Source of the DNA: a virus
Virus record (IMG/VR): IMGVR_UViG_3300045988_099805
Coordinates: 1-61,173 of that record
Length of the DNA: 61,173 bases
Direction: 5' to 3' (one strand)
Both the position numbers and the translations under genes were made by a program. Below, piece after piece: positions 5,949 to 48,747 of this stretch (position 1 is its first letter; every line of letters begins with the position of its first letter). Below the pieces are notes generated by a model. The model did no database searches and had not been told where the DNA came from. It was given only the letters and a program-made list of their open reading frames with translations.

Positions 5949-6027
5949 ATCTGTTTCCTTTCTAGTCTGCCATCATCAGCACCGGGAGACCGTCCCGCGG
6001 TGGACGCTCCTTTGTGGAGCGTTTCGG

Positions 6028-6297
6028 CTAATATCTACAAGGATTTTCATAGCGGATTATAACCACCTTTTCGCCTGTGCTTTTTAGCGTTCCGAAGCCG
6101 TTAAACATCGGACCATTTAAGCCTAATAATTTAGGCTGGTTATAAAGCTCTTGCCGCTGTCTTTCTGCATCCCATCCGTTGTTGTAGCCATATATAAGGC
6201 TTTTCATTTGCTCTGCTGTCTTAATCTGTGCCGGCAAATCATAAACGCATTTCTCGCCGCTCTCAAGTGTTCCTATAATCATATCAATTACCTCCAT
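6028..6297 (-). CDS. hypothetical small protein (89 aa)
   Basis: RBS tggaggta on the minus strand. First gene of the leftward operon. Confidence 0.55.
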   Translation of the reverse strand: MEVIDMIIGTLESGEKCVYDLPAQIKTAEQMKSLIYGYNNGWDAERQRQELYNQPKLLGLNGPMFNGFGTLKSTGEKVVIIRYENPCRY

Positions 6298-6861: not shown

Positions 6862-6892
6862 GTAATCACAAAATTAAAAAGGAGTGATTGCA

Positions 6893-7492
6893 ATGAATGA
6901 TTTATTTGAAATACCAGAAACAGAATCAAATGGAGTATATGCGATCCTTAACGCTGAAGAAAACAGGGTTTACGTTGGTCAAACATCAAATTTAAGAAAA
7001 AGAGCAACGCAACACATGAACGCATTAAAAAACGGAAACCACCAAAACATTTTATTGAATTTTGACAGAAATAAAAAATTTTATTTTAAAATAATATTGG
7101 AAAATGTCAAGAATCCGGAGATTCTGCCGTTTTTAGAAAAAATATACATGCAGGTATATATAAATTTGGGATATCAGTTATACAATCTTTCCCCAAAAAA
7201 TTCATTAAAATCTTGCAGGCTATATGATGAAATAGGTTTATCTTCATACGAATATTTCAGATCTCCAGATTTTGCGAAAGATGTATTTTGCAATCCTAAT
7301 ATTGCATATTTCATTGTTGAAAAAGGTGAAAACGATGAGTTTGTTTTTTCTGAACCGATAGAAAAAGCGTTACCAGCAATAGAAAAAGCCGATAAAATGT
7401 ATTTATCCGGCAAAGATATTTATGCTGTCGTGTTATCGACCACAAAAAACAATGAGCCGTTTAAAATTTTAAAAATGGAAAAATCATATTAA
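6893..7492 (+). CDS. GIY-YIG nuclease-domain protein (homing-endonuclease-like)
   Basis: GVYAILN...RVYVGQTSNLRKRATQH motif. ATG 6893 follows AAGGAG. Confidence 0.65.
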   Translation: MNDLFEIPETESNGVYAILNAEENRVYVGQTSNLRKRATQHMNALKNGNHQNILLNFDRNKKFYFKIILENVKNPEILPFLEKIYMQVYINLGYQLYNLSPKNSLKSCRLYDEIGLSSYEYFRSPDFAKDVFCNPNIAYFIVEKGENDEFVFSEPIEKALPAIEKADKMYLSGKDIYAVVLSTTKNNEPFKILKMEKSY

Positions 7493-9289: not shown

Positions 9290-9545
9290 GTCTATGGGAG
9301 AAACTGCGGTTTATCCAAGAGAGCTAAAAGAACGACGGGAACCGGACGGAAAAGCACCGTTCCGGAACCATCTCACGGCTCCGGATGGGAAAAGGGGCGT
9401 CCCCCTCTGCACCGGACGCCCTGACGGGCGTACTAAGCCCCCAAAATATTCTCAAAAACAAAAAGACCTTGGCGTAGATAGGGTAGCTCCCGACAAGCTG
9501 CAACCTTTCACAGCTTCTACGCCGATTAAAGAAAGGGTATGTCTA
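9290..9545 (+). ncRNA. GC-rich structured RNA element (class unknown)
   Basis: The track ORF 9294..9548 has no RBS and a P/R/G-rich translation. There are many helices, including gggcgtcc/ggacgccc, the alternative pairing acgccc/gggcgt, and ggcgtaga/tctacgcc. Confidence 0.4.
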
Positions 9546-9578
9546 TAGATGCAAGGATAAATGAAAGGTGGTCTATAT

Positions 9579-10313
9579 ATGAACGATTTACAAGTATTCA
9601 GCAGTACAGAGTTTGGTAGCGTACGAACAATAACCATAGACGGGAAAATAATGTTTGTTGGAAAAGATGTTTGTGATATTCTGGAGTACCAAAACGGTAG
9701 TCGAGATATAAACAGACATGTTGACGAAGATGACAGACAGAAGATTATGTTGTTTGATGGAACGAAAGAAAACGAAACCATAGTAATAAACGAATCCGGT
9801 CTTTATAGTTTGATATTTTCTAGCAGAATGCCAAACGCAAAGAAATTTAAGCGTTGGGTTACGAGCGAAGTGATACCGAGCATTCGGAAAAACGGATACT
9901 ACGATATGAGAGAAAGTAAAACGGATTCGTACATGATTGAGGATCCGGCAGAACGTGCAAGACGTTGGGCGGAAGAGTACGAAGAGAAAAAGTTGCTAGA
10001 ATGTAAAGTCACGGAGCTTAAACCAAAGGCTGATTATTTTGATGGGCTGGTCGATAGCAAACTTTTAACGACATTTAGAGATGCGGCAAAAGAATTTCAA
10101 ATGTCACCAAAGAGCTTTAATAAGTGGCTGACAGAGCACGGATACATTTACCGTGACAGGCACGGAATTATTAAGCCATATGAGCAGTATAGAAAAAGCG
10201 GTTTATTTCAACTTAAAGATTTTAAGACTCCTCACGGTTATTCTAATGTTCAAACGTATTTAACCATTAGAGGGAAAGAAACATTCCGTTTACTTATGGG
10301 GGTTGAACAATGA
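9579..10313 (+). CDS. antirepressor (BRO-N plus KilAC/ANT C-terminal domain)
   Basis: MNDLQVFSSTEFGSVRTITIDGKIMFVGKDV is a Bro-N domain. It is a paralogue of 40975..41718. ATG 9579 follows AAGGTGG. Confidence 0.75.
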   Translation: MNDLQVFSSTEFGSVRTITIDGKIMFVGKDVCDILEYQNGSRDINRHVDEDDRQKIMLFDGTKENETIVINESGLYSLIFSSRMPNAKKFKRWVTSEVIPSIRKNGYYDMRESKTDSYMIEDPAERARRWAEEYEEKKLLECKVTELKPKADYFDGLVDSKLLTTFRDAAKEFQMSPKSFNKWLTEHGYIYRDRHGIIKPYEQYRKSGLFQLKDFKTPHGYSNVQTYLTIRGKETFRLLMGVEQ

Positions 10314-10992: not shown

Positions 10993-11117
10993 AAACATTC
11001 GTTGCCCTACTTGTTGATGGGAAAGTAAAAATCAATAGTCTGAAATAAACGTGTCATAATAACCTTTTAATCGTAGTAGTTTACGGGCGTTTGATTGGTC
11101 TCTTCGCCCGTAGGTGA

Positions 11118-11189
11118 TGGGGTATCGCCAAATGGTAAGGCATGGGATTTTGGTTCCCAGACTTCCCGGTTCGAATCCGGGTACCCTAG
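11118..11189 (+). tRNA. tRNA-Gln (anticodon UUG)
   Basis: TGGGGTA-TC-GCC-AAATGGTAA-GGC-A-TGGGA-TTTTGGT-TCCCA-GACTT-CCCGG-TTCGAAT-CCGGG-TACCCTA-G. This is close to E. coli tRNA-Gln. It is 72 nt long and has no encoded CCA. Confidence 0.85.
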
Positions 11190-11459
11190 TTTCCGGCAGG
11201 TTCTTTTGTTCGCTATGCTTTTCATCTCCTGCTGGAACCATGATGCTACATGCTATTTGCATTGTACATCTCCTTTCTAATACCCCTCTAGCGGAAAGCT
11301 GATTAAAGATCCGTCACAAGGATCGGAGGGGGTTACTTGAGCATCTATCCCACGATGCTCAAGCGTGCAAATCAACTTACGCTTTTTGGCATGAGCGTAG
11401 CCGTAACAGGCGGTGTCATTTCATACAAAATCCTCCATTGATAATTGTATGTTTTTGAG

Positions 11460-11525
11460 TGGCAAGCGCGCAGGGCATCCGTTATTCGTGCAGACGGAAA
11501 GATGGTTCAAATCCATCCTTGCCAT
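11460..11525 (+). other. aberrant tRNA-like element (66 nt)
   Basis: Perfect 7-bp acceptor stem TGGCAAG/CTTGCCA and T-arm GATGG-TTCAAAT-CCATC. The 32-nt core lacks a D-arm and holds one hairpin, tccgt...acgga. Confidence 0.35.
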
Positions 11526-11578
11526 TATCCGGCACGGGATTTATTCCTGTGACCGGCTGGTCTTACTGAAAGACTGGT

Positions 11579-11664
11579 GGACGGAGGCTGGAACGCCGGT
11601 TGGAGGTTTTCACTCCTTTACTCCAACATAAAGGAGAATTGCGGTTCGAATCCGCAACCGTCCG
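11579..11664 (+). other. aberrant tRNA-like element (86 nt)
   Basis: T-arm TGCGG-TTCGAAT-CCGCA and acceptor GGACGG(A)/(A)CCGTCC. The core has a D-like stem with a 4-nt loop and mutually exclusive 7-bp pairings: gttggag/ctccaac versus ctccttt/aaaggag. Confidence 0.3.
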
Positions 11665-11873
11665 TTTTGCTTTTGAGAATCAGTTGTGCAGAAACCAATG
11701 ATATCAATGGAAGAACAGAAACTACATGATTTCTTGAAAGTAAGTATTTTACAACAAACTAGGTGATGCAGACCGAAAAGCAGACCTACGACTGCCTGTT
11801 TGTTGTTTTTATTGATCGTAGAGTTTAGCACATAAAGCGTGGTGCTGTTTATGTTTCGTAGGAGGTAAACAAT

Positions 11874-12815
11874 ATGAATTATAATGAGCTGTTTATAAAC
11901 AAAGACGATGTTTTGCTTATCCGAAAAACGCTTGTAAAGGTTTTGGGTAATCTGAATGAAGCTGTTGTTCTTAACCAGATACATTATTGGCTTGAAATCA
12001 ATAAAAAGGCAGATAAAAATTTTCGTGATGGAAGATACTGGATTTTTAATACATATCAGTCGTGGAAAGAAACCGATTTTGATTTTTGGTCAGTAGACAC
12101 GATCAGAAGAACAATAACCAGTCTGGAGAAAAAAGGCATTGTTATTACAGCTAATTATAACAAAATGAAAATTGACAAGACAAAGTGGTATTCCATTGAC
12201 TATGAAAAGCTGCAAAGTCTTGTTGACAATTACGATATGGCAGATTGCGTTCACGACATGGCAAATTGCACAGATGGACATGGCAATCTCAGCAAAGCAA
12301 TACCAGAGACTACTACAGAGAATACATACAAAGACTACATAGAGGATAATACATCATCTAACGATGATGGAAAGGTAAATACATCATTTTCAGAAAATGA
12401 TGAAAAACCAAAACTCACAAAATCGGAATTGCAGAAAAAGCAACAGGACATGTCTAAACGTTTTTATGATATCTGCGATGTATCTATCGGTCATGGTGAT
12501 TTGAAAGAAGCAGTAAATAATGCTTTTAATCTTTACATGGATTTGTTTACAGAGAAAACAGGGAAGACACATCCGATATTGAGAAATGAAACGCTGATTG
12601 ACGTATGTTCAGCTTTATCCCATATAAACGATAAAGAGTTTAATCATTTTGAGGAGTTTGATTTTTCAAAACCAAAAGAAGATGGAACAATGCCGTTGGA
12701 AGAAATGGTAAGATTGCACTTTGCTAGAAGCCACAATGGTAAGACAGATTATAGCATAGCTCATTTTTGTAACAAAAAGTATCTTTTGAAACTGGCACAA
12801 TTTGTAATGAGTTAG
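11874..12815 (+). CDS. putative replication initiator / winged-helix (RepA_N or DnaD-like) protein
   Basis: GGAGG RBS. N-terminal ...EAVVLNQIHYWLE...GRYWIFNTYQSWKE...TIRRTITSLEKKGIV looks like a wHTH domain. The middle region is acidic. Confidence 0.45.
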   Translation: MNYNELFINKDDVLLIRKTLVKVLGNLNEAVVLNQIHYWLEINKKADKNFRDGRYWIFNTYQSWKETDFDFWSVDTIRRTITSLEKKGIVITANYNKMKIDKTKWYSIDYEKLQSLVDNYDMADCVHDMANCTDGHGNLSKAIPETTTENTYKDYIEDNTSSNDDGKVNTSFSENDEKPKLTKSELQKKQQDMSKRFYDICDVSIGHGDLKEAVNNAFNLYMDLFTEKTGKTHPILRNETLIDVCSALSHINDKEFNHFEEFDFSKPKEDGTMPLEEMVRLHFARSHNGKTDYSIAHFCNKKYLLKLAQFVMS

Positions 12816-13727: not shown

Positions 13728-13848
13728 AATGGACATGCCGGAGGTGGGGAACTGCGTTGCACCCACGCGCCTTGCGTAAATGACGTAACGGTTAAAAGAG
13801 ATGGAGCAGATTGCAACGGCTCCGCGGCATATTTTAAGGAGATAAAAA
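13728..13848 (+). promoter_or_regulatory. GC-rich structured leader (possible cis-regulatory RNA)
   Basis: Closing helix atgccggag / ctccg(c)ggcat encloses gtggg...cccac and a long-range gcgttgca / tgcaacg pairing. It ends at the AAGGAG RBS of the next gene. Confidence 0.3.
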
Positions 13849-41732: not shown

Positions 41733-42554
41733 ATGTCAGTTAAAGGTTACAAAGCTTACGAAAAAGGAATGATTTGCAAAGGAAAGCAGTATGAGGAAAA
41801 TACTACTTACGAGGAAAGCGGAAACGAAATTTGTGAATCTGGTGTTATGCATTTTTGCAAGGAGCCGTTCGACGTGCTTAATTATTATCCATTAGTAGAT
41901 GAAAATGGCAATATTTCTGAATTTTCAGAGGTGGAAGCTGTCGGAGATGTATACGAAAAAGAGGATAAATGTGCCACGAACAAATTACACGTCGGTTTAA
42001 AGCTTGGTCTTAAAGGATTTATTAAAGCGTGTGTTGACTTTACAATCGAAAAGACAGGATTTACCTGTGATGATTCAGGCGAAAACGACAGCAAAGGAGG
42101 AAACGCAAAGATTGGTAGCTCTGGAGATTACGCACAGATTGGTAGCTCTGGACATTACGCACAGATTGGTAGCTCTGGAGATTACGCAAAGATTGGTAGC
42201 TCTGGATATTACGCACAGATTGGTAGCTCTGGAGATTCCGCAAAGATTGGTAGCTCTGGAGATTCAGCACAGATTGGTAGCTCTGGAGATTCCGCAAAGA
42301 TTGGTAGCTCTGGAGATTCCGCAAAGATTGAATCGGAAGGAAAACACTCCGTAATAATGGCGGCTGGAATGGACTCTGTTGCAAAAGCAAAAATTGGCAG
42401 TTGGATTACATTGGCTGAATGGGAAAGAAAAAATGAAAACGATAATTCTTATTGGATTCCGGTATGCGTCAAAACAGAATGTGTTGACGGAGAAAAAATT
42501 AAAGAAGATACGTTTTACCGATTAAAAAACGGAGAATTTGTGGAGCTTGAATAG
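41733..42554 (+). CDS. hypothetical protein with eight tandem IGSSGDxAx nonapeptides
   Basis: N-terminal ...GYKAYEKGMICKGKQYEENTTYE...GVMHFCKEPFDVLNYY, then the 27-bp repeats. Confidence 0.6.
   Translation: MSVKGYKAYEKGMICKGKQYEENTTYEESGNEICESGVMHFCKEPFDVLNYYPLVDENGNISEFSEVEAVGDVYEKEDKCATNKLHVGLKLGLKGFIKACVDFTIEKTGFTCDDSGENDSKGGNAKIGSSGDYAQIGSSGHYAQIGSSGDYAKIGSSGYYAQIGSSGDSAKIGSSGDSAQIGSSGDSAKIGSSGDSAKIESEGKHSVIMAAGMDSVAKAKIGSWITLAEWERKNENDNSYWIPVCVKTECVDGEKIKEDTFYRLKNGEFVELE
42111..42326 (+). repeat. 8 x 27-bp in-frame tandem repeat
   Basis: attggtagctctggagattacgcacag units with substitutions mostly in codons 6-9. Confidence 0.9.
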
Positions 42555-45924: not shown

Positions 45925-46533
45925 ATGAGTAGTAAAACATTGGAAATGGCAAGGGAACTGGTAAAAAGACTTGAAGAAGAGGAGAAAAAAAGCAAAGTCA
46001 AACTTTGTGAATTGCATCCGGGCGATACATTCAAAATTGGAGATCATGATTTTATCGTCCTCTTTCAAGATGATTTCACGGAAACAACAAGAGTAATCTC
46101 AAAAGGATTCATGGCAGAAAATATCGTATTTGATGATGATACGAGAGACTACAGCAAATCTAATCTTAGAAAGGTCATCGAGGGAGATATTCAGCCTATT
46201 ATCGAAGCGGAGGTTGGTGAAGAAAATATTGCTGAATATTCTGTTGACTTGACAACGGTTGATATGCAGGAAGAATTTTCTCATTTTAAATGCAAGGTCA
46301 GACCTATTACATTTGATGAAGCAAGAAAGTACAATGATCTTCTTGTGAATAACGAGTTAAATGATTGGTGGTGGACTTGCACACCGTGGTCTACAGCTGA
46401 AAGAGGATGGGAGTATTCAATCGCCGTTGTTGCTTCGTCCGGCAATTTCAACTACTGGGGCTGCAATGGCAACTGCGGTGTTCGCCCATTTTGTATCTTG
46501 AAATCTAATATCTTTGTATCGAAGGGAGAATAA
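45925..46533 (+). CDS. DGR variable protein 1 (202 aa)
   Basis: Its C-terminus carries VR1. A paralogue of 46536..47144. ...WWWTCTPWS...VVASSGNFNYWGCNGNCGVRPFCI. Confidence 0.8.
   Translation: MSSKTLEMARELVKRLEEEEKKSKVKLCELHPGDTFKIGDHDFIVLFQDDFTETTRVISKGFMAENIVFDDDTRDYSKSNLRKVIEGDIQPIIEAEVGEENIAEYSVDLTTVDMQEEFSHFKCKVRPITFDEARKYNDLLVNNELNDWWWTCTPWSTAERGWEYSIAVVASSGNFNYWGCNGNCGVRPFCILKSNIFVSKGE
46422..46496 (+). repeat. DGR variable repeat VR1
   Basis: Compared with the TR: 11 substitutions, all at TR adenines, plus C69->T. Confidence 0.85.
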
Positions 46534-46535
46534 TT

Positions 46536-47144
46536 ATGGCTAATTTAACAATGAAAATTTTACAGGAGCAGATCAACGACCTTAGAAATGAGGTTGCCAT
46601 TTTGAAAGCAGAAAAAAGTTTTTCTAAAATCCATACCGGTCTTAAAATCGGAGACACTTTTAAAATCGCAGGTCTTGACTGGAAGATTATTGACATTACA
46701 GACAAGGGTTATTCTTGCCTTTGTGAAATTTTGGAAGAAGAGATGAAGTTTGACGATTCTTCTAACGACTGGAGATCGAGCGTTTTAAGAGAATATTTGA
46801 ATGGGGATTTTCTCAAAAAGATATCCGATGAAGTTGGAAAAGAAAATATCGTTAAGTTCGAAAGAGATCTGTTATCTCTGGACGGTCAGACGGAATATGA
46901 AAAGTACGAGGATTTTATTTCTCTTCTTACTGTAGATGAATACAGGAAATATCGAAGTCTTATTCCAAATGAGGGAAATTGGTGGTGGCTTATTACTCCT
47001 TGGAGTACACCTTGCAACGATTATGAATATTCGGTTACCGTTGTTGCTTCGTCCGGCAGTATCGACAGCGGGAACTACAATGGCGACTTCGGTGTTCGCC
47101 CATTTTGTATCTTTTCTTCTTCAATCTTTGAATCAGAGGAGTAA
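46536..47144 (+). CDS. DGR variable protein 2 (202 aa)
   Basis: Its C-terminus carries VR2. ...WWWLITPWS...VVASSGSIDSGNYNGDFGVRPFCI. Confidence 0.8.
   Translation: MANLTMKILQEQINDLRNEVAILKAEKSFSKIHTGLKIGDTFKIAGLDWKIIDITDKGYSCLCEILEEEMKFDDSSNDWRSSVLREYLNGDFLKKISDEVGKENIVKFERDLLSLDGQTEYEKYEDFISLLTVDEYRKYRSLIPNEGNWWWLITPWSTPCNDYEYSVTVVASSGSIDSGNYNGDFGVRPFCIFSSSIFESEE
47037..47111 (+). repeat. DGR variable repeat VR2
   Basis: Compared with the TR: 9 substitutions, all at TR adenines, plus C69->T. Confidence 0.85.
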
Positions 47145-47148
47145 TTAA

Positions 47149-47520
47149 ATGGCTGGAACGGAATTAAAGGTAATCTTGAAAGCAAAAGACCTTGCTGAAC
47201 ATACACTGCGGATAACTTCAAACTGCAATAGATATCCGAAGAAATACAGATTTTCTCTTGTGGATAAAATGCAAAATAAAGCACTTGAAATCTATGAGTA
47301 TCTGTATGAATCTAATCGAACGGATTTGAAGTTGTATCGCAGGGAGCGGTCGGAGCTTCAAACCAAAGCAATAACGCATTGTGACGAACTTTTGTTTTAC
47401 ATTGAATTATCAACGAAACTAAACATCATAAATGCAAAAAGCACGGAATATTGGTCGAAGATGGTTTCTGACATTAAGCATATGGCGATTGCTTGGAGAA
47501 CTAAGGACAAAGAAAGATAA
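47149..47520 (+). CDS. avd: DGR accessory variability determinant (Avd-like four-helix-bundle protein)
   Basis: 123 aa, basic. ...RYPKKYRFSLVDKMQNKALEIYEYLYESN... pattern. Positioned between target and TR. Confidence 0.75.
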   Translation: MAGTELKVILKAKDLAEHTLRITSNCNRYPKKYRFSLVDKMQNKALEIYEYLYESNRTDLKLYRRERSELQTKAITHCDELLFYIELSTKLNIINAKSTEYWSKMVSDIKHMAIAWRTKDKER

Positions 47521-47545
47521 ATTTATTAGGTTGCGCACTGCATAA

Positions 47546-47620
47546 ACCGTTGTTGCTTCGTCCGGCAATATCAACAACAGGAACTACAATAACAACAACG
47601 GTGTTCGCCCATTCTGTATC
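47546..47620 (+). repeat. DGR template repeat (TR)
   Basis: accgttgttgcttcgtccggcaatatcaacaacaggaactacaataacaacaacggtgttcgcccattctgtatc. It is non-coding, rich in AAC/AAT codons in the VR frame, and has 22 adenines. Confidence 0.85.
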
Positions 47621-47718
47621 ACACAGACAGTTATAGTAGGTAGTAAGCCGAAATCGGAAAAAGATACAAAAAAGTGCACGACCTTTCCTAAAAGGATAAA
47701 TACAAAGGAATTTTTACT

Positions 47719-48747
47719 ATGGATAAAGATATTATTTGTGATTATGAAAATCTGTATAAGGCTTATAAGAAAGCTAAATACGGTAAAAAATTCAATGGCA
47801 GCAGTGCAAAATTTCAGACAATGAGCCTTGAAGGACTGCATCTTTTAAAAGAACAGCTTGAAAATCAGACATACCGGATGAATCCGTACAATGAATTTAA
47901 GGTCTATGAACCTAAGGAGAGAGTGATTAAATCGTGTTCTTTTAAGGATAAAGTTGTTCAACATTGTCTGTGCGATAACATATTGTATCCGAGATTGGAA
48001 AGCGAGTTCATCAAAACCAATTATGCAGGGCAGAAAGGAAAAGGAACTCATTTCGGAATGGATTGTCTAAGAGATCAAATGCTTGAGTTTTACGTAAAGC
48101 ACGGTCTTGATGGCTGGATTCTTAAATGTGATATTAAGAAGTTTTTCTACCAGATAGATCACGAAATCTTAAAAGATATTGTTGACTATCATTTTCCAGA
48201 CGAATATGTGAAGTGGTTAAATCATTTGTTTATAGACAGCACAGATGGTTTGGGACTTCCGCTTGGAAACCAAGTTGCACAGGTTTATGCTTTGTTGATG
48301 CTTAACGGGTTAGATCGTTTTATTACCGGAGAATTAGGTATAAAACTATACGGACGATATATGGACGATTTCTACTTAATCCACCAAGATAAAGGTTATT
48401 TGATGTGGTACCTTGACTGCATAAGGGAATTTGTTGCCAGTCTCAGATTGTCGCTGAATGGGAAAACGCAAATATTGCCGTTTAAAAACGGGATACTGTT
48501 TACCGGTTTTCATCATTACATTGCGAAAGACGGAAAATACATAAGAAAACTTACAGGATCGAATAAACGTAAAATCCGCAAGAAGATTAGAACATGGGTA
48601 AAGCTTGTGAAATCTGGAAGAATGACAGAAAAGAAGTTTTATGAAAAGTACAATGCCTGGAAAAATCATGCATTACACGGAAATTGCGTAAAACTTTGTT
48701 ATTCAATGGATTTATATGTAAAAGAATTATTTGAAAGCGAGGAATGA
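47719..48747 (+). CDS. DGR reverse transcriptase
   Basis: 342 aa. YGRYMDDF catalytic motif. LPLGNQVAQ resembles the DGR-RT (I/L)GxxxSQ signature. Confidence 0.9.
   Translation: MDKDIICDYENLYKAYKKAKYGKKFNGSSAKFQTMSLEGLHLLKEQLENQTYRMNPYNEFKVYEPKERVIKSCSFKDKVVQHCLCDNILYPRLESEFIKTNYAGQKGKGTHFGMDCLRDQMLEFYVKHGLDGWILKCDIKKFFYQIDHEILKDIVDYHFPDEYVKWLNHLFIDSTDGLGLPLGNQVAQVYALLMLNGLDRFITGELGIKLYGRYMDDFYLIHQDKGYLMWYLDCIREFVASLRLSLNGKTQILPFKNGILFTGFHHYIAKDGKYIRKLTGSNKRKIRKKIRTWVKLVKSGRMTEKKFYEKYNAWKNHALHGNCVKLCYSMDLYVKELFESEE

Follow-up and report, generated by a model that had tools for sequence, protein, structure and literature searches.

The transfer RNA (tRNA) region of bacteriophage T4 carries, beside its tRNAs, the stable RNAs called 'species 1 and 2'. 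tRNA processing can also release small RNAs from spacers and trailers, as with 3'ETS-leuZ of E. coli, and tRNA-like structures act as punctuation in mitochondrial transcripts and in MALAT1/mascRNA. The ROOL RNA forms a single fold of about 581 nt with six multistem junctions (PMC5737381). Here, we analyzed the block at positions 10993-11873 of a 61,173-nt viral DNA (IMG/VR record IMGVR_UViG_3300045988_099805; this whole stretch is called the window), which belongs to a temperate phage of about 60 kb that infects gut Lachnospiraceae. An initial annotation, made from the letters of the DNA, had described the block as free of open reading frames (ORFs) and filled wall to wall with structure around one normal tRNA, and had proposed either a large RNA of the GOLLD/ROOL kind or a set of tRNA mimics instead of a simple tRNA array. 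Our results indicate that the block is probably an accessory tRNA and small-RNA island, the modules of which have separate histories. Five kinds of modules were found: a tRNA-Gln, a trailing RNA of about 145 nt, two clade-specific tRNA derivatives, clade-specific stabilizing hairpins, and an int-alpA leader.

The island resembles the T4-type clusters in that co-oriented tRNAs and tRNA-like RNAs lie in a gene-free stretch, vary between phages, and are presumably processed by RNase P. Unlike in T4, one canonical tRNA is left, the partner RNA (from a three-way junction to a hairpin termed P5) is unrelated to the T4 RNAs, and int-alpA ends the island. With GOLLD (RF01998) and ROOL (RF03087) it shares the prophage setting and the adjacency to a tRNA (PMC5737381), whereas its conserved unit has a single junction and spans about 145 nt, the remainder being a mosaic of independent modules. 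Dense structure beside a prophage tRNA need not mean a giant RNA of the ROOL/GOLLD type, and here a mosaic tRNA island is the probable explanation. As in the case of 3'ETS-leuZ and mascRNA, a non-tRNA RNA is bounded by a tRNA and by tRNA-like units that could set its ends, and the degenerate tRNAs keep the acceptor stem and the T-arm, the parts needed by RNase P and RNase Z. In contrast to a spacer of the 3'ETS-leuZ type, the trailing RNA is highly structured and conserved across many phages, and its putative processing is read from the sequence.

Further parallels exist with the escape tRNAs of mycobacteriophages and T5, because the islands of relatives contain constant scaffolds with variable anticodon domains; the elements of the window differ from them in that they are not point variants, have grossly non-canonical anticodon domains, and are not linked to a defence system. 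One 66-nt element of the block combines an acceptor stem and a T-arm with a reduced D-arm, like the armless or otherwise non-canonical tRNAs (those of nematode mitochondria, the tRNA-like domain of transfer-messenger RNA (tmRNA), and YrlA). Unlike tmRNA and YrlA, the elements of the window have no Rfam match, no tag ORF, and no Ro-binding helix. Set beside such tRNA-like domains, the junction is a unit of three helices in which one small loop contains GG and another loop has 7 nt. A related survey is that of Fremin et al. 2023 (PMC10690425), which likewise deals with IMG/VR gut phages of Lachnospiraceae and describes tRNA-like and highly expressed small RNAs.

The mosaic nature of the block became visible in related phages. 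Using the replication protein as an anchor, 38 IMG/VR loci were fetched. The block was also present in eight close loci (protein identity 96-100%), where its DNA was 88-96% identical and showed insertions and deletions. Loci with 45-54% protein identity carried true tRNA arrays at the same site, 5' of the same replication gene; in these arrays tRNA-Gln(UUG) was followed by a varying set of tRNAs for Asn, Ser(GCU), Tyr, Val, Leu, and Cys, by UUA/UCA suppressors, and by odd tRNAs. Nearly all relatives had the tRNA-Gln ahead of the other tRNAs of the island, the islands comprised 2-5 tRNAs, the last of which adjoined int-alpA, and the most distant loci had none. Outside the close clade, only three pieces of the block recurred by sequence, namely the tRNA-Gln, the three-way junction, and int-alpA, and between these pieces the relatives with 45-54% identity carried different tRNAs instead. 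Because only these three pieces recur, we regard the block as a mosaic accessory island and not as one inherited RNA. All of its modules are co-oriented on the plus strand, and, as is typical of a phage tRNA island, co-oriented tRNAs lie in a gene-free stretch with a content that varies among related phages. The suggestion that the block holds tRNA mimics and not a simple array is supported in part, as a description and not as a function: two members are non-canonical, but the locus as a whole has true tRNA arrays of relatives as its homologues. When the block was compared by BLAST with 50,697 phage records, the tRNA-Gln alone gave matches, and no cultured phage among them shared the other modules.

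Two tRNA scaffolds of the relatives were constant while their anticodon domain was hypervariable. The scaffold YGGCAUG..CCUUGCCG carried the anticodons GUU, AUU, AAU, AGU, or AAC; anticodon forms with A34 are unusual for bacteria. At the DNA level this tRNA-Asn scaffold (YGGCATG...CCTTGCCG) was seen in L009 (2792-2864), L023 (3054-3126), L078, L083, and other loci. The second scaffold, CGGAUAG..CUAUCCG, carried UUA (ochre type), UUG (Gln), UCA (opal type), or non-canonical inserts; it (CGGATAG...CTATCCG) directly abutted int-alpA in L011 (3806-3877), L014 (3456-3529), L017 (3813-3884), L106, L139, and L019/L022. Constant scaffolds with hypervariable anticodons, including the UUA and UCA suppressors, bear on the question why temperate phages carry tRNAs, for which two views exist: supply of codons, and an arms race with defences that target tRNAs.

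The normal tRNA named in the initial annotation was recovered as described. With default settings ARAGORN called a single tRNA in the whole window, tRNA-Gln with the anticodon UUG at 11118-11189, and the Rfam tRNA model (RF00005) scored 56.2 bits at this position and at no other (cut-off 29). The tRNA is canonical, has a U1-A72 pair, and does not encode the CCA end; its nucleotide diversity (pi) was 0.0185. In the window the share of CAA among glutamine codons, counted over all long ORFs, was 0.53 in the structural (late) genes (126/112) versus 0.35 in the others (73/135), a bias that would fit a codon-supply role of the phage tRNA-Gln(UUG). Two hairpins flank the tRNA. The leader hairpin at 11082-11112 has the core tacgggcg/cgcccgta (11082-11089/11105-11112), which ends 5 nt before the tRNA, and its stem extends over 11080-11114 (-14.9 kcal/mol, z score -2.95). 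In close relatives its outer pairs changed from U.G to U-A or C-G and from A-U to G.U, so that the stem was kept; it was seen in the close clade only. The trailer hairpin at 11192-11238 (ttccggcagg/cctgctggaa, 10 bp including one G.U, z -3.6) has a large and variable loop. Among close relatives the stem was retained, with G.U replaced by G-C, and the loop was exchanged; the hairpin found here differs from lineage to lineage.

The most valuable result is an unnamed, strongly supported RNA linked to the tRNA-Gln. Its core is the three-way junction at 11283-11331, which consists of the helices P1 (CCCCTC/GAGGGG), P2 (AGC-GGAAA-GCT), and P3 (GATCC-GTCACAA-GGATC), with GATTAAA as the joining strand J2/3. 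Its signature, GGAAAGCTG-N4-9-CCGTCACAAGG, was scanned in IMG/VR viral contigs and in bacterial genomes. At least 119 viral contigs, from gut phages, matched. Among the bacterial matches five were genuine, i.e. the isolate Lachnospira intestinalis CLA-AA-H89B as well as Faecalimonas, Lachnospiraceae, and Clostridia metagenome-assembled genomes, and the remaining six were due to chance. In CLA-AA-H89B the junction is located in a prophage, and since this is a cultured strain, the RNA is open to experiment.

Comparison of 29 distinct sequences showed that the positions of P1, P2, and P3 were paired in 97.5% of the cases, and 7 of the 14 pairs were altered on both sides. The covariation score was 0.507, whereas column shuffles gave 0.209 (none of 500 reached 0.507) and slid registers at most 0.083. 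G.U pairs appeared on the plus strand only. A covariance model of the junction, R1, scored 79.1 bits at the junction of the window, and a search of the window with this model gave no other credible match. Divergent members with 45-48 bits have GAGA or AAGA as the P2 loop and GUCAGAU as the P3 loop. The covariation-supported core can be described as P1, P2, and P3 with UAGY-loop-GCUG(A)UUAA(A)G and a GUCAnAn loop. Of 106 distinct contexts, 77 had a tRNA-Gln(UUG) that ended 34-92 nt (median 46) 5' of the junction. None of the lineages tested, including the window block searched at E<=10, gave a match to an Rfam family at this RNA. The junction is a real conserved RNA that is widespread in gut phages: it covaries strongly, is tied to tRNA-Gln(UUG), occurs in well over a hundred phage contigs from the human gut, and is absent from Rfam. 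The literature searched contained no description of the motif. The IMG/VR catalogue of Fremin et al. 2023 (PMC10690425), which lists 8,495 candidate structured RNAs, may include it among its unnamed models.

The junction is part of a longer conserved RNA of about 145 nt, which comprises a pyrimidine box (box 1), the junction, an optional hairpin, the segment GUGRAAAUCAAC, and the hairpins P4 and P5; a second pyrimidine box (box 2) follows shortly after. Box 1, CTCCTTTC, at 11270-11277 is single-stranded in the minimum free energy fold and lies just 5' of the junction. It resembles the 3' tail of 16S ribosomal RNA (rRNA), i.e. an anti-Shine-Dalgarno (anti-SD) sequence, and recurs as YCCUUUC in most lineages. 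The optional insertion hairpin at 11336-11363 has a perfect 10-bp stem and the loop UAUCCCAC (z -6.8). In the lineages of L009 and L023 the same AAUCCCAC-type loop sits on another stem, the hairpin is absent from several lineages, and the loop consensus in the extended motif is AUCCCAC; the same loop also tops the long hairpin in the centre of the L060-type tRNA-like element. The conserved single-stranded segment GTGCAAATCAAC at 11365-11376 has the consensus GUGRAAAUCAAC and was found in at least 10 otherwise differing lineages. P4 (11377-11400) always follows the conserved CAAC and is built from at least nine unrelated stem sequences across the lineages. P5 (11401-11413) is a 3-bp hairpin of the form C-N-G[UNANAGG]C-N-G, in the window CCG-UAACAGG-CGG, the middle pair of which is C-G, U-A, A-U, or U.G depending on the lineage, while the loop consensus is kept. 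The downstream half, from GUGRAAAUCAAC to P5, is present in the window at 11365-11413 and is missing in some lineages (L024 type). Box 2 (ATCCTCC, 11430-11436) lies in the predicted loop of a small hairpin at 11422-11452, and a CUCC/CCCC-rich box is found about 3-20 nt after P5 in most lineages. Anti-SD-like k-mers, i.e. the C-rich boxes, were modestly enriched over shuffled sequences (P 0.018-0.035). The sequences CCGUCACA, CGUAACAGG, and CCUCC resemble the 3' minor domain of 16S rRNA, with loops that vary between lineages; to take this likeness as a pointer to function would be speculation.

Several other assignments of the junction were considered and rejected. Pairing of box 1 with the P2 loop in a pseudoknot (UUUC/GAAA) showed no covariation in lineages with GAGA or AAGA as the P2 loop. 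A hammerhead-like ribozyme is contradicted by the joining strands of 1, 7, and 1 nt and by the core, which reads CUGAUUA instead of CUGAUGA, and Rfam gave no match. Likewise, no Rfam ribozyme or riboswitch class matched the junction, and it is followed by tRNA or tRNA-like genes and not by an ORF. We also observed that the segment from the P2 loop to P3 (11292-11318, CGGAAAGCTGATTAAAGATCCGTC) is about 75% alike to 11495-11521 (CGGAAAGATGGTTCAAATCCATC) of the 66-nt element, which is its segment from the anticodon stem to the T-arm. The junction may descend from the 3' half of a tRNA.

The two aberrant tRNA-like elements behaved differently. The first, at 11460-11525 (66 nt), has a perfect 7-bp acceptor stem (TGGCAAG/CTTGCCA), a mini D-arm of 3 bp, a stem of 5-6 bp with a loop of 9-11 nt, and a canonical T-arm (GATGG-TTCAAAT-CCATC). 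The second, at 11579-11664 (86 nt), is of class II, i.e. with a long variable arm, and has a 6-bp acceptor stem (GGACGG/CCGTCC), a 3-bp D-like arm with GG in the loop, and a canonical T-arm (TGCGG-TTCGAAT-CCGCA); its centre is ambiguous. Both thus combine an acceptor stem with a UUCRAAU T-loop and a GG-containing D-loop. Neither contains a canonical anticodon arm with a 5-bp stem, a 7-nt loop, U33, and a purine at position 37. The centre of the 86-nt element can adopt either of two mutually exclusive folds: a 4-bp stem whose loop, GUUUUCA, has C at position 37, or a stem of 7 bp that closes a loop of 15 nt. The 66-nt element had no match to the tRNA clan of Rfam at E<=10 and no default call by ARAGORN, which reported it only at -ps80 or in mitochondrial mode. 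For the 86-nt element the best match in the clan was tRNA-Sec with 18.3 bits (E 1.2), below the threshold of 47; ARAGORN called it only when relaxed, and the mitochondrial mode gave a partial call inside the element. The mitochondrial calls carry no confidence value, and the anticodons assigned under relaxed settings were inconsistent.

Both elements are confined to one narrow close clade. The 86-nt element occurs in eight contigs only, and pattern scans with T-arm plus acceptor or with the core retrieved the same eight close contigs, so that no diverse alignment was obtained. No significant covariation was found in the 66-nt element, where a single double change in the D-stem was non-significant and the window itself has a C.A mismatch in this stem. 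In the six haplotypes of the 86-nt element there was no compensatory change, neither for a pseudoknot nor for a cloverleaf version. The interleaved pairings of the initial annotation are present as sequences, but ctccttt/aaaggag is broken by a C.A mismatch in 4 of the 6 haplotypes. Moreover, L001 and L006 have an A.G mismatch in the acceptor stem of the 86-nt element, and a deletion in L005 leaves only the 3' half of the 66-nt element. Both elements are best preserved in the acceptor stem and the T-arm. Nucleotide diversity was 0.048 (66 nt) and 0.052 (86 nt), compared with 0.015-0.027 for the tRNA-Gln, the junction, the hairpin pair between the elements, and int-alpA, and with 0.070 for the third codon positions of the replication gene. 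The two elements therefore evolve about 2.5 times faster than the neighbouring modules. The pair of stable hairpins between them (11529-11577; -25.5 kcal/mol, z -5.3) is also clade-specific and varies at 2 of 52 sites, both in a loop.

With respect to origin, the acceptor stem (YGGCA../..CUUGCCR) and the D/anticodon junction of the 66-nt element align to the Asn-type scaffold of the relatives with a 14-nt gap in the D-arm. When covariance models of both elements were run against 100 loci, the best distant match of the 66-nt model was the positionally equivalent L060-type tRNA-like element (22.8 bits), and those of the 86-nt model were the class II tRNA-Ser(GCU) of relatives (24.9 bits). nhmmer profiles of the tRNA families of the relatives gave marginal matches in the block that were dominated by the T-arm. 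By these alignments the 66-nt element looks like a decayed copy of an Asn-type tRNA and the 86-nt element like that of a Ser-like class II tRNA.

We propose the following course of events. The island would be transcribed rightward as a single precursor; we propose this because a scan for sigma-70-type consensus elements showed no promoter-like or terminator-like site on the plus strand around the tRNA-Gln, the junction, and the two tRNA-like elements. The acceptor/T-arm units do not encode CCA and are all followed by U-rich trailers, and the host RNase P and RNase Z could cut at each of them. Cleavage would free the tRNA-Gln, which could supply the decoding of CAA codons used more by the late genes, and would free the RNA trailing it as a stable small RNA. 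This trailing RNA would be the functional non-tRNA product and might act in trans, its C/U-rich boxes and loops binding purine-rich, Shine-Dalgarno-like targets; such binding is speculative. The degenerate tRNAs would no longer decode and would survive, if they are selected at all, as processing punctuation. Most likely their role would not go beyond that of marking RNase P/Z processing sites in a precursor of several RNAs. If so, they would represent a bacterial-virus counterpart of the tRNA-like processing signals of mitochondria and of the MALAT1 type. int-alpA would act as a leader in front of the replication gene.

Several points weigh against this proposal. Co-transcription, cleavage by RNase P and RNase Z, and addition of CCA are deduced from the DNA and from what is general in Firmicute tRNA maturation. 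The anti-SD idea relies on the modest enrichment mentioned above, the boxes vary, and the pairing of box 1 with the P2 loop does not covary. The argument from codon supply is one-sided, because it uses the codon usage of the phage and not that of the host. Mosaic recombination confounds the comparison of diversities, and some spacers had pi values of 0-0.009, below that of the tRNA. Because only 4 to 6 haplotypes were available, missing covariation in the two elements does not prove that they have no function. The homology of the elements to particular tRNA families, finally, depends on the low scores of 22.8 and 24.9 bits.

Other explanations were weighed against the accessory island. The large-RNA proposal of the initial annotation is the least credible of all and is already largely refuted. 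The block as a whole does fold better than shuffled sequences (-288 kcal/mol, z -4.5), and GOLLD and ROOL are found near tRNAs in prophages (PMC5737381). However, when the covariance models of Rfam 15 were run at gathering thresholds over the window and at E<=10 over the block, only tRNA and int-alpA exceeded their thresholds in the block; ROOL, GOLLD, and tmRNA gave no match in the window, and neither these three families nor Y RNA matched the block at E<=10. ARAGORN found no tmRNA with default settings, and one permuted call at low threshold spanned unrelated modules. Furthermore, the block is not conserved as a unit with long-range covarying helices, but its modules are lost, replaced, and recombined independently in relatives, and the only long-range pairing found (11431-11443 with 11702-11714) has its second partner within a spacer that is missing from 7 of the 8 close relatives. 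A function of the structure in DNA, as a replication origin or recombination site beside the initiator gene, is highly improbable. It would agree with the position directly 5' of the DnaD-like gene and with the similar z of both strands, but the plus-strand fold is 34 kcal/mol more stable, the junction has G.U pairs that would be A.C on the other strand, the block is free of iterons and repeat families, and its modules are a tRNA, tRNA-like elements, and a known RNA family. We consider it quite improbable that the 66-nt and 86-nt elements work in decoding as non-canonical tRNAs, for instance in frameshifting or suppression by means of an expanded anticodon loop, even though relaxed ARAGORN assigns anticodons to both, a GG D-loop and a UUCRAAU T-loop would allow an elbow in both, and suppressor-type tRNAs (UUA, UCA) are present in the islands of relatives. 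The anticodon loop of 9-11 nt in the one, two exclusive centre folds in the other, neither of which was supported by comparison, scores far below the tRNA thresholds, and ORFs of the window that read through normally in the standard code all argue against decoding.

Less remote, yet still unlikely, is the idea that both aberrant elements, and perhaps the junction, are selected tRNA mimics or decoys against host anticodon nucleases or tRNA-modifying toxins. They would keep the elbow and the acceptor end, show non-cognate 'anticodon' domains, and so soak up or evade the defences. Such a role would suit the constant scaffolds with hypervariable anticodon domains in the relatives, the scaffold type YGGCAUG to which the 66-nt element belongs, and the preservation of acceptor and T-arm in both elements. 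It would also agree with work on mycobacteriophages and T5, in which phage tRNAs with changes in the anticodon loop reportedly escape tRNA-cleaving defences. Restriction to a narrow clade, the half-deletion in L005, the acceptor mismatch in two relatives, the lack of compensatory changes, and a diversity near that of the neutral proxy are at odds with it, and no defence nuclease or target was identified for the elements. Narrow distribution, missing covariation, and fast divergence would fit decay at least as well as a decoy role. There is a similarly small chance that the trailing RNA represents a new class of phage effector RNA derived from a tRNA precursor. It might mimic the anti-SD of the 16S 3' tail at several sites and reprogram translation, or it might be the partner, in a decoy system, of the scaffolds with hypervariable anticodons against tRNA- or rRNA-targeting defences; the aberrant elements would then be active members of that system and not pseudogenes.

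Returning to the accessory island, its right end is formed by an RNA that the initial annotation had overlooked. The int-alpA RNA (Rfam RF02996) at 11752-11818 scored 46.6 bits (cut-off 35.8) over model positions 1-71; a U-run comes after its closing helix, and 56 nt lie between its end and the replication gene. In distant relatives it is found at the same place with 43-53 bits, directly abutting the last tRNA. A second copy at 9471-9537 (plus strand, 41.4 bits) is unlike the first in sequence, and 24 nt separate its end from the Bro-N/KilAC antirepressor gene (9561-10313). A single phage thus has the motif in front of two early genes, and both copies are full members of the family (motif set of Weinberg et al. 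2017) just 5' of these genes. Together with the covariation in the junction, P4, and P5, the int-alpA match shows that structure beyond the tRNA-Gln is well supported, so that the refuting condition named in the initial annotation does not apply. On its left, int-alpA is preceded by a variable spacer (11665-11751), which has this form only in the window and in L002; in 7 of the 8 close relatives about 37 nt of other sequence are found instead. On its right, the leader at 11819-11873, with the Shine-Dalgarno (SD) motif AGGAGG, leads to the DnaD-like replication gene (11874-12815; PHROG 6493/11233, replication initiation/DnaD-like), and it is conserved together with int-alpA in distant relatives.

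On the other side, the block is flanked by an ORF of 63 codons, itself 3' of a DUF3310 gene, so that early genes (antirepressor, DUF3310) precede the block and the replication gene follows it. Phage genes are present on both sides, the window is phage throughout (terminase, repressor, serine recombinase), and the hosts are Lachnospiraceae/Clostridia. All helices and elements listed in the initial annotation were recovered from the sequence at the positions given there. The z scores of the modules ranged from -6.8 to -1.3. The lowest was that of the 10-bp stem (-6.8), and the hairpin pair (-5.3), the 86-nt element (-3.5), the 66-nt element (-2.1), and the three-way junction (-1.95) lay in between. 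The description as wall-to-wall structure was thus somewhat overstated, as 11241-11282 is unpaired in the whole-block fold, and 11366-11459 (z -1.3) and 11665-11751 (z -1.45) fold no better than shuffled sequences. The statement that the block is ORF-free proved true in substance. Mechanical ORFs do occur, but the longest, on the minus strand at 11610-11984, shifts frame among close relatives and was rejected as a gene. A second minus-strand ORF, 11032-11262, was rejected because it runs antisense through the tRNA-Gln and because its arrangement of SD and ATG, read from the lineage sequences, is not kept in other lineages; its SD motif is the reverse complement of pyrimidine box 1.

The promoter and terminator scan gave one match on the plus strand of the block, a promoter-like site with 9 of 12 matching positions at 11673-11702, in the variable spacer, and the number of sites in the region was within the expectation from shuffled sequences. 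The sequence TGTCATAAT at 11052-11060 (plus strand), about 58 nt 5' of the tRNA-Gln, reads as an extended -10 element (TG-n-CATAAT). Close relatives hardly differ in this stretch, the element was not picked up by the consensus scan, and L024 has TGTCAGAAT at a similar position.

Several features elsewhere in the window were also recorded. A type II hammerhead ribozyme (5961-6029, minus strand, 64.5 bits, cut-off 37) is located in the early region near a gene for a GIY-YIG homing-endonuclease-like protein (6884-7492). A skipping-rope RNA was found at 13734-13831 (plus strand, 38.6 bits, cut-off 36.7), and in L062 such an RNA (1016-1100, 58.2 bits) follows a tRNA-like element. A diversity-generating retroelement at 46423-48747 (plus strand) consists of a reverse transcriptase gene (RVT_1, 47719-48747), an adenine-rich template repeat (47546-47620), and two variable repeats (46423-46497 and 47037-47111), which lie at the 3' ends of two paralogous ORFs of 202 amino acids and differ from the template mainly at A positions. 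Finally, about 12 tandem copies of a 27-nt unit, encoding a repeat of nine residues, are present at 42049-42372 (plus strand) inside the ORF at 41733-42554.

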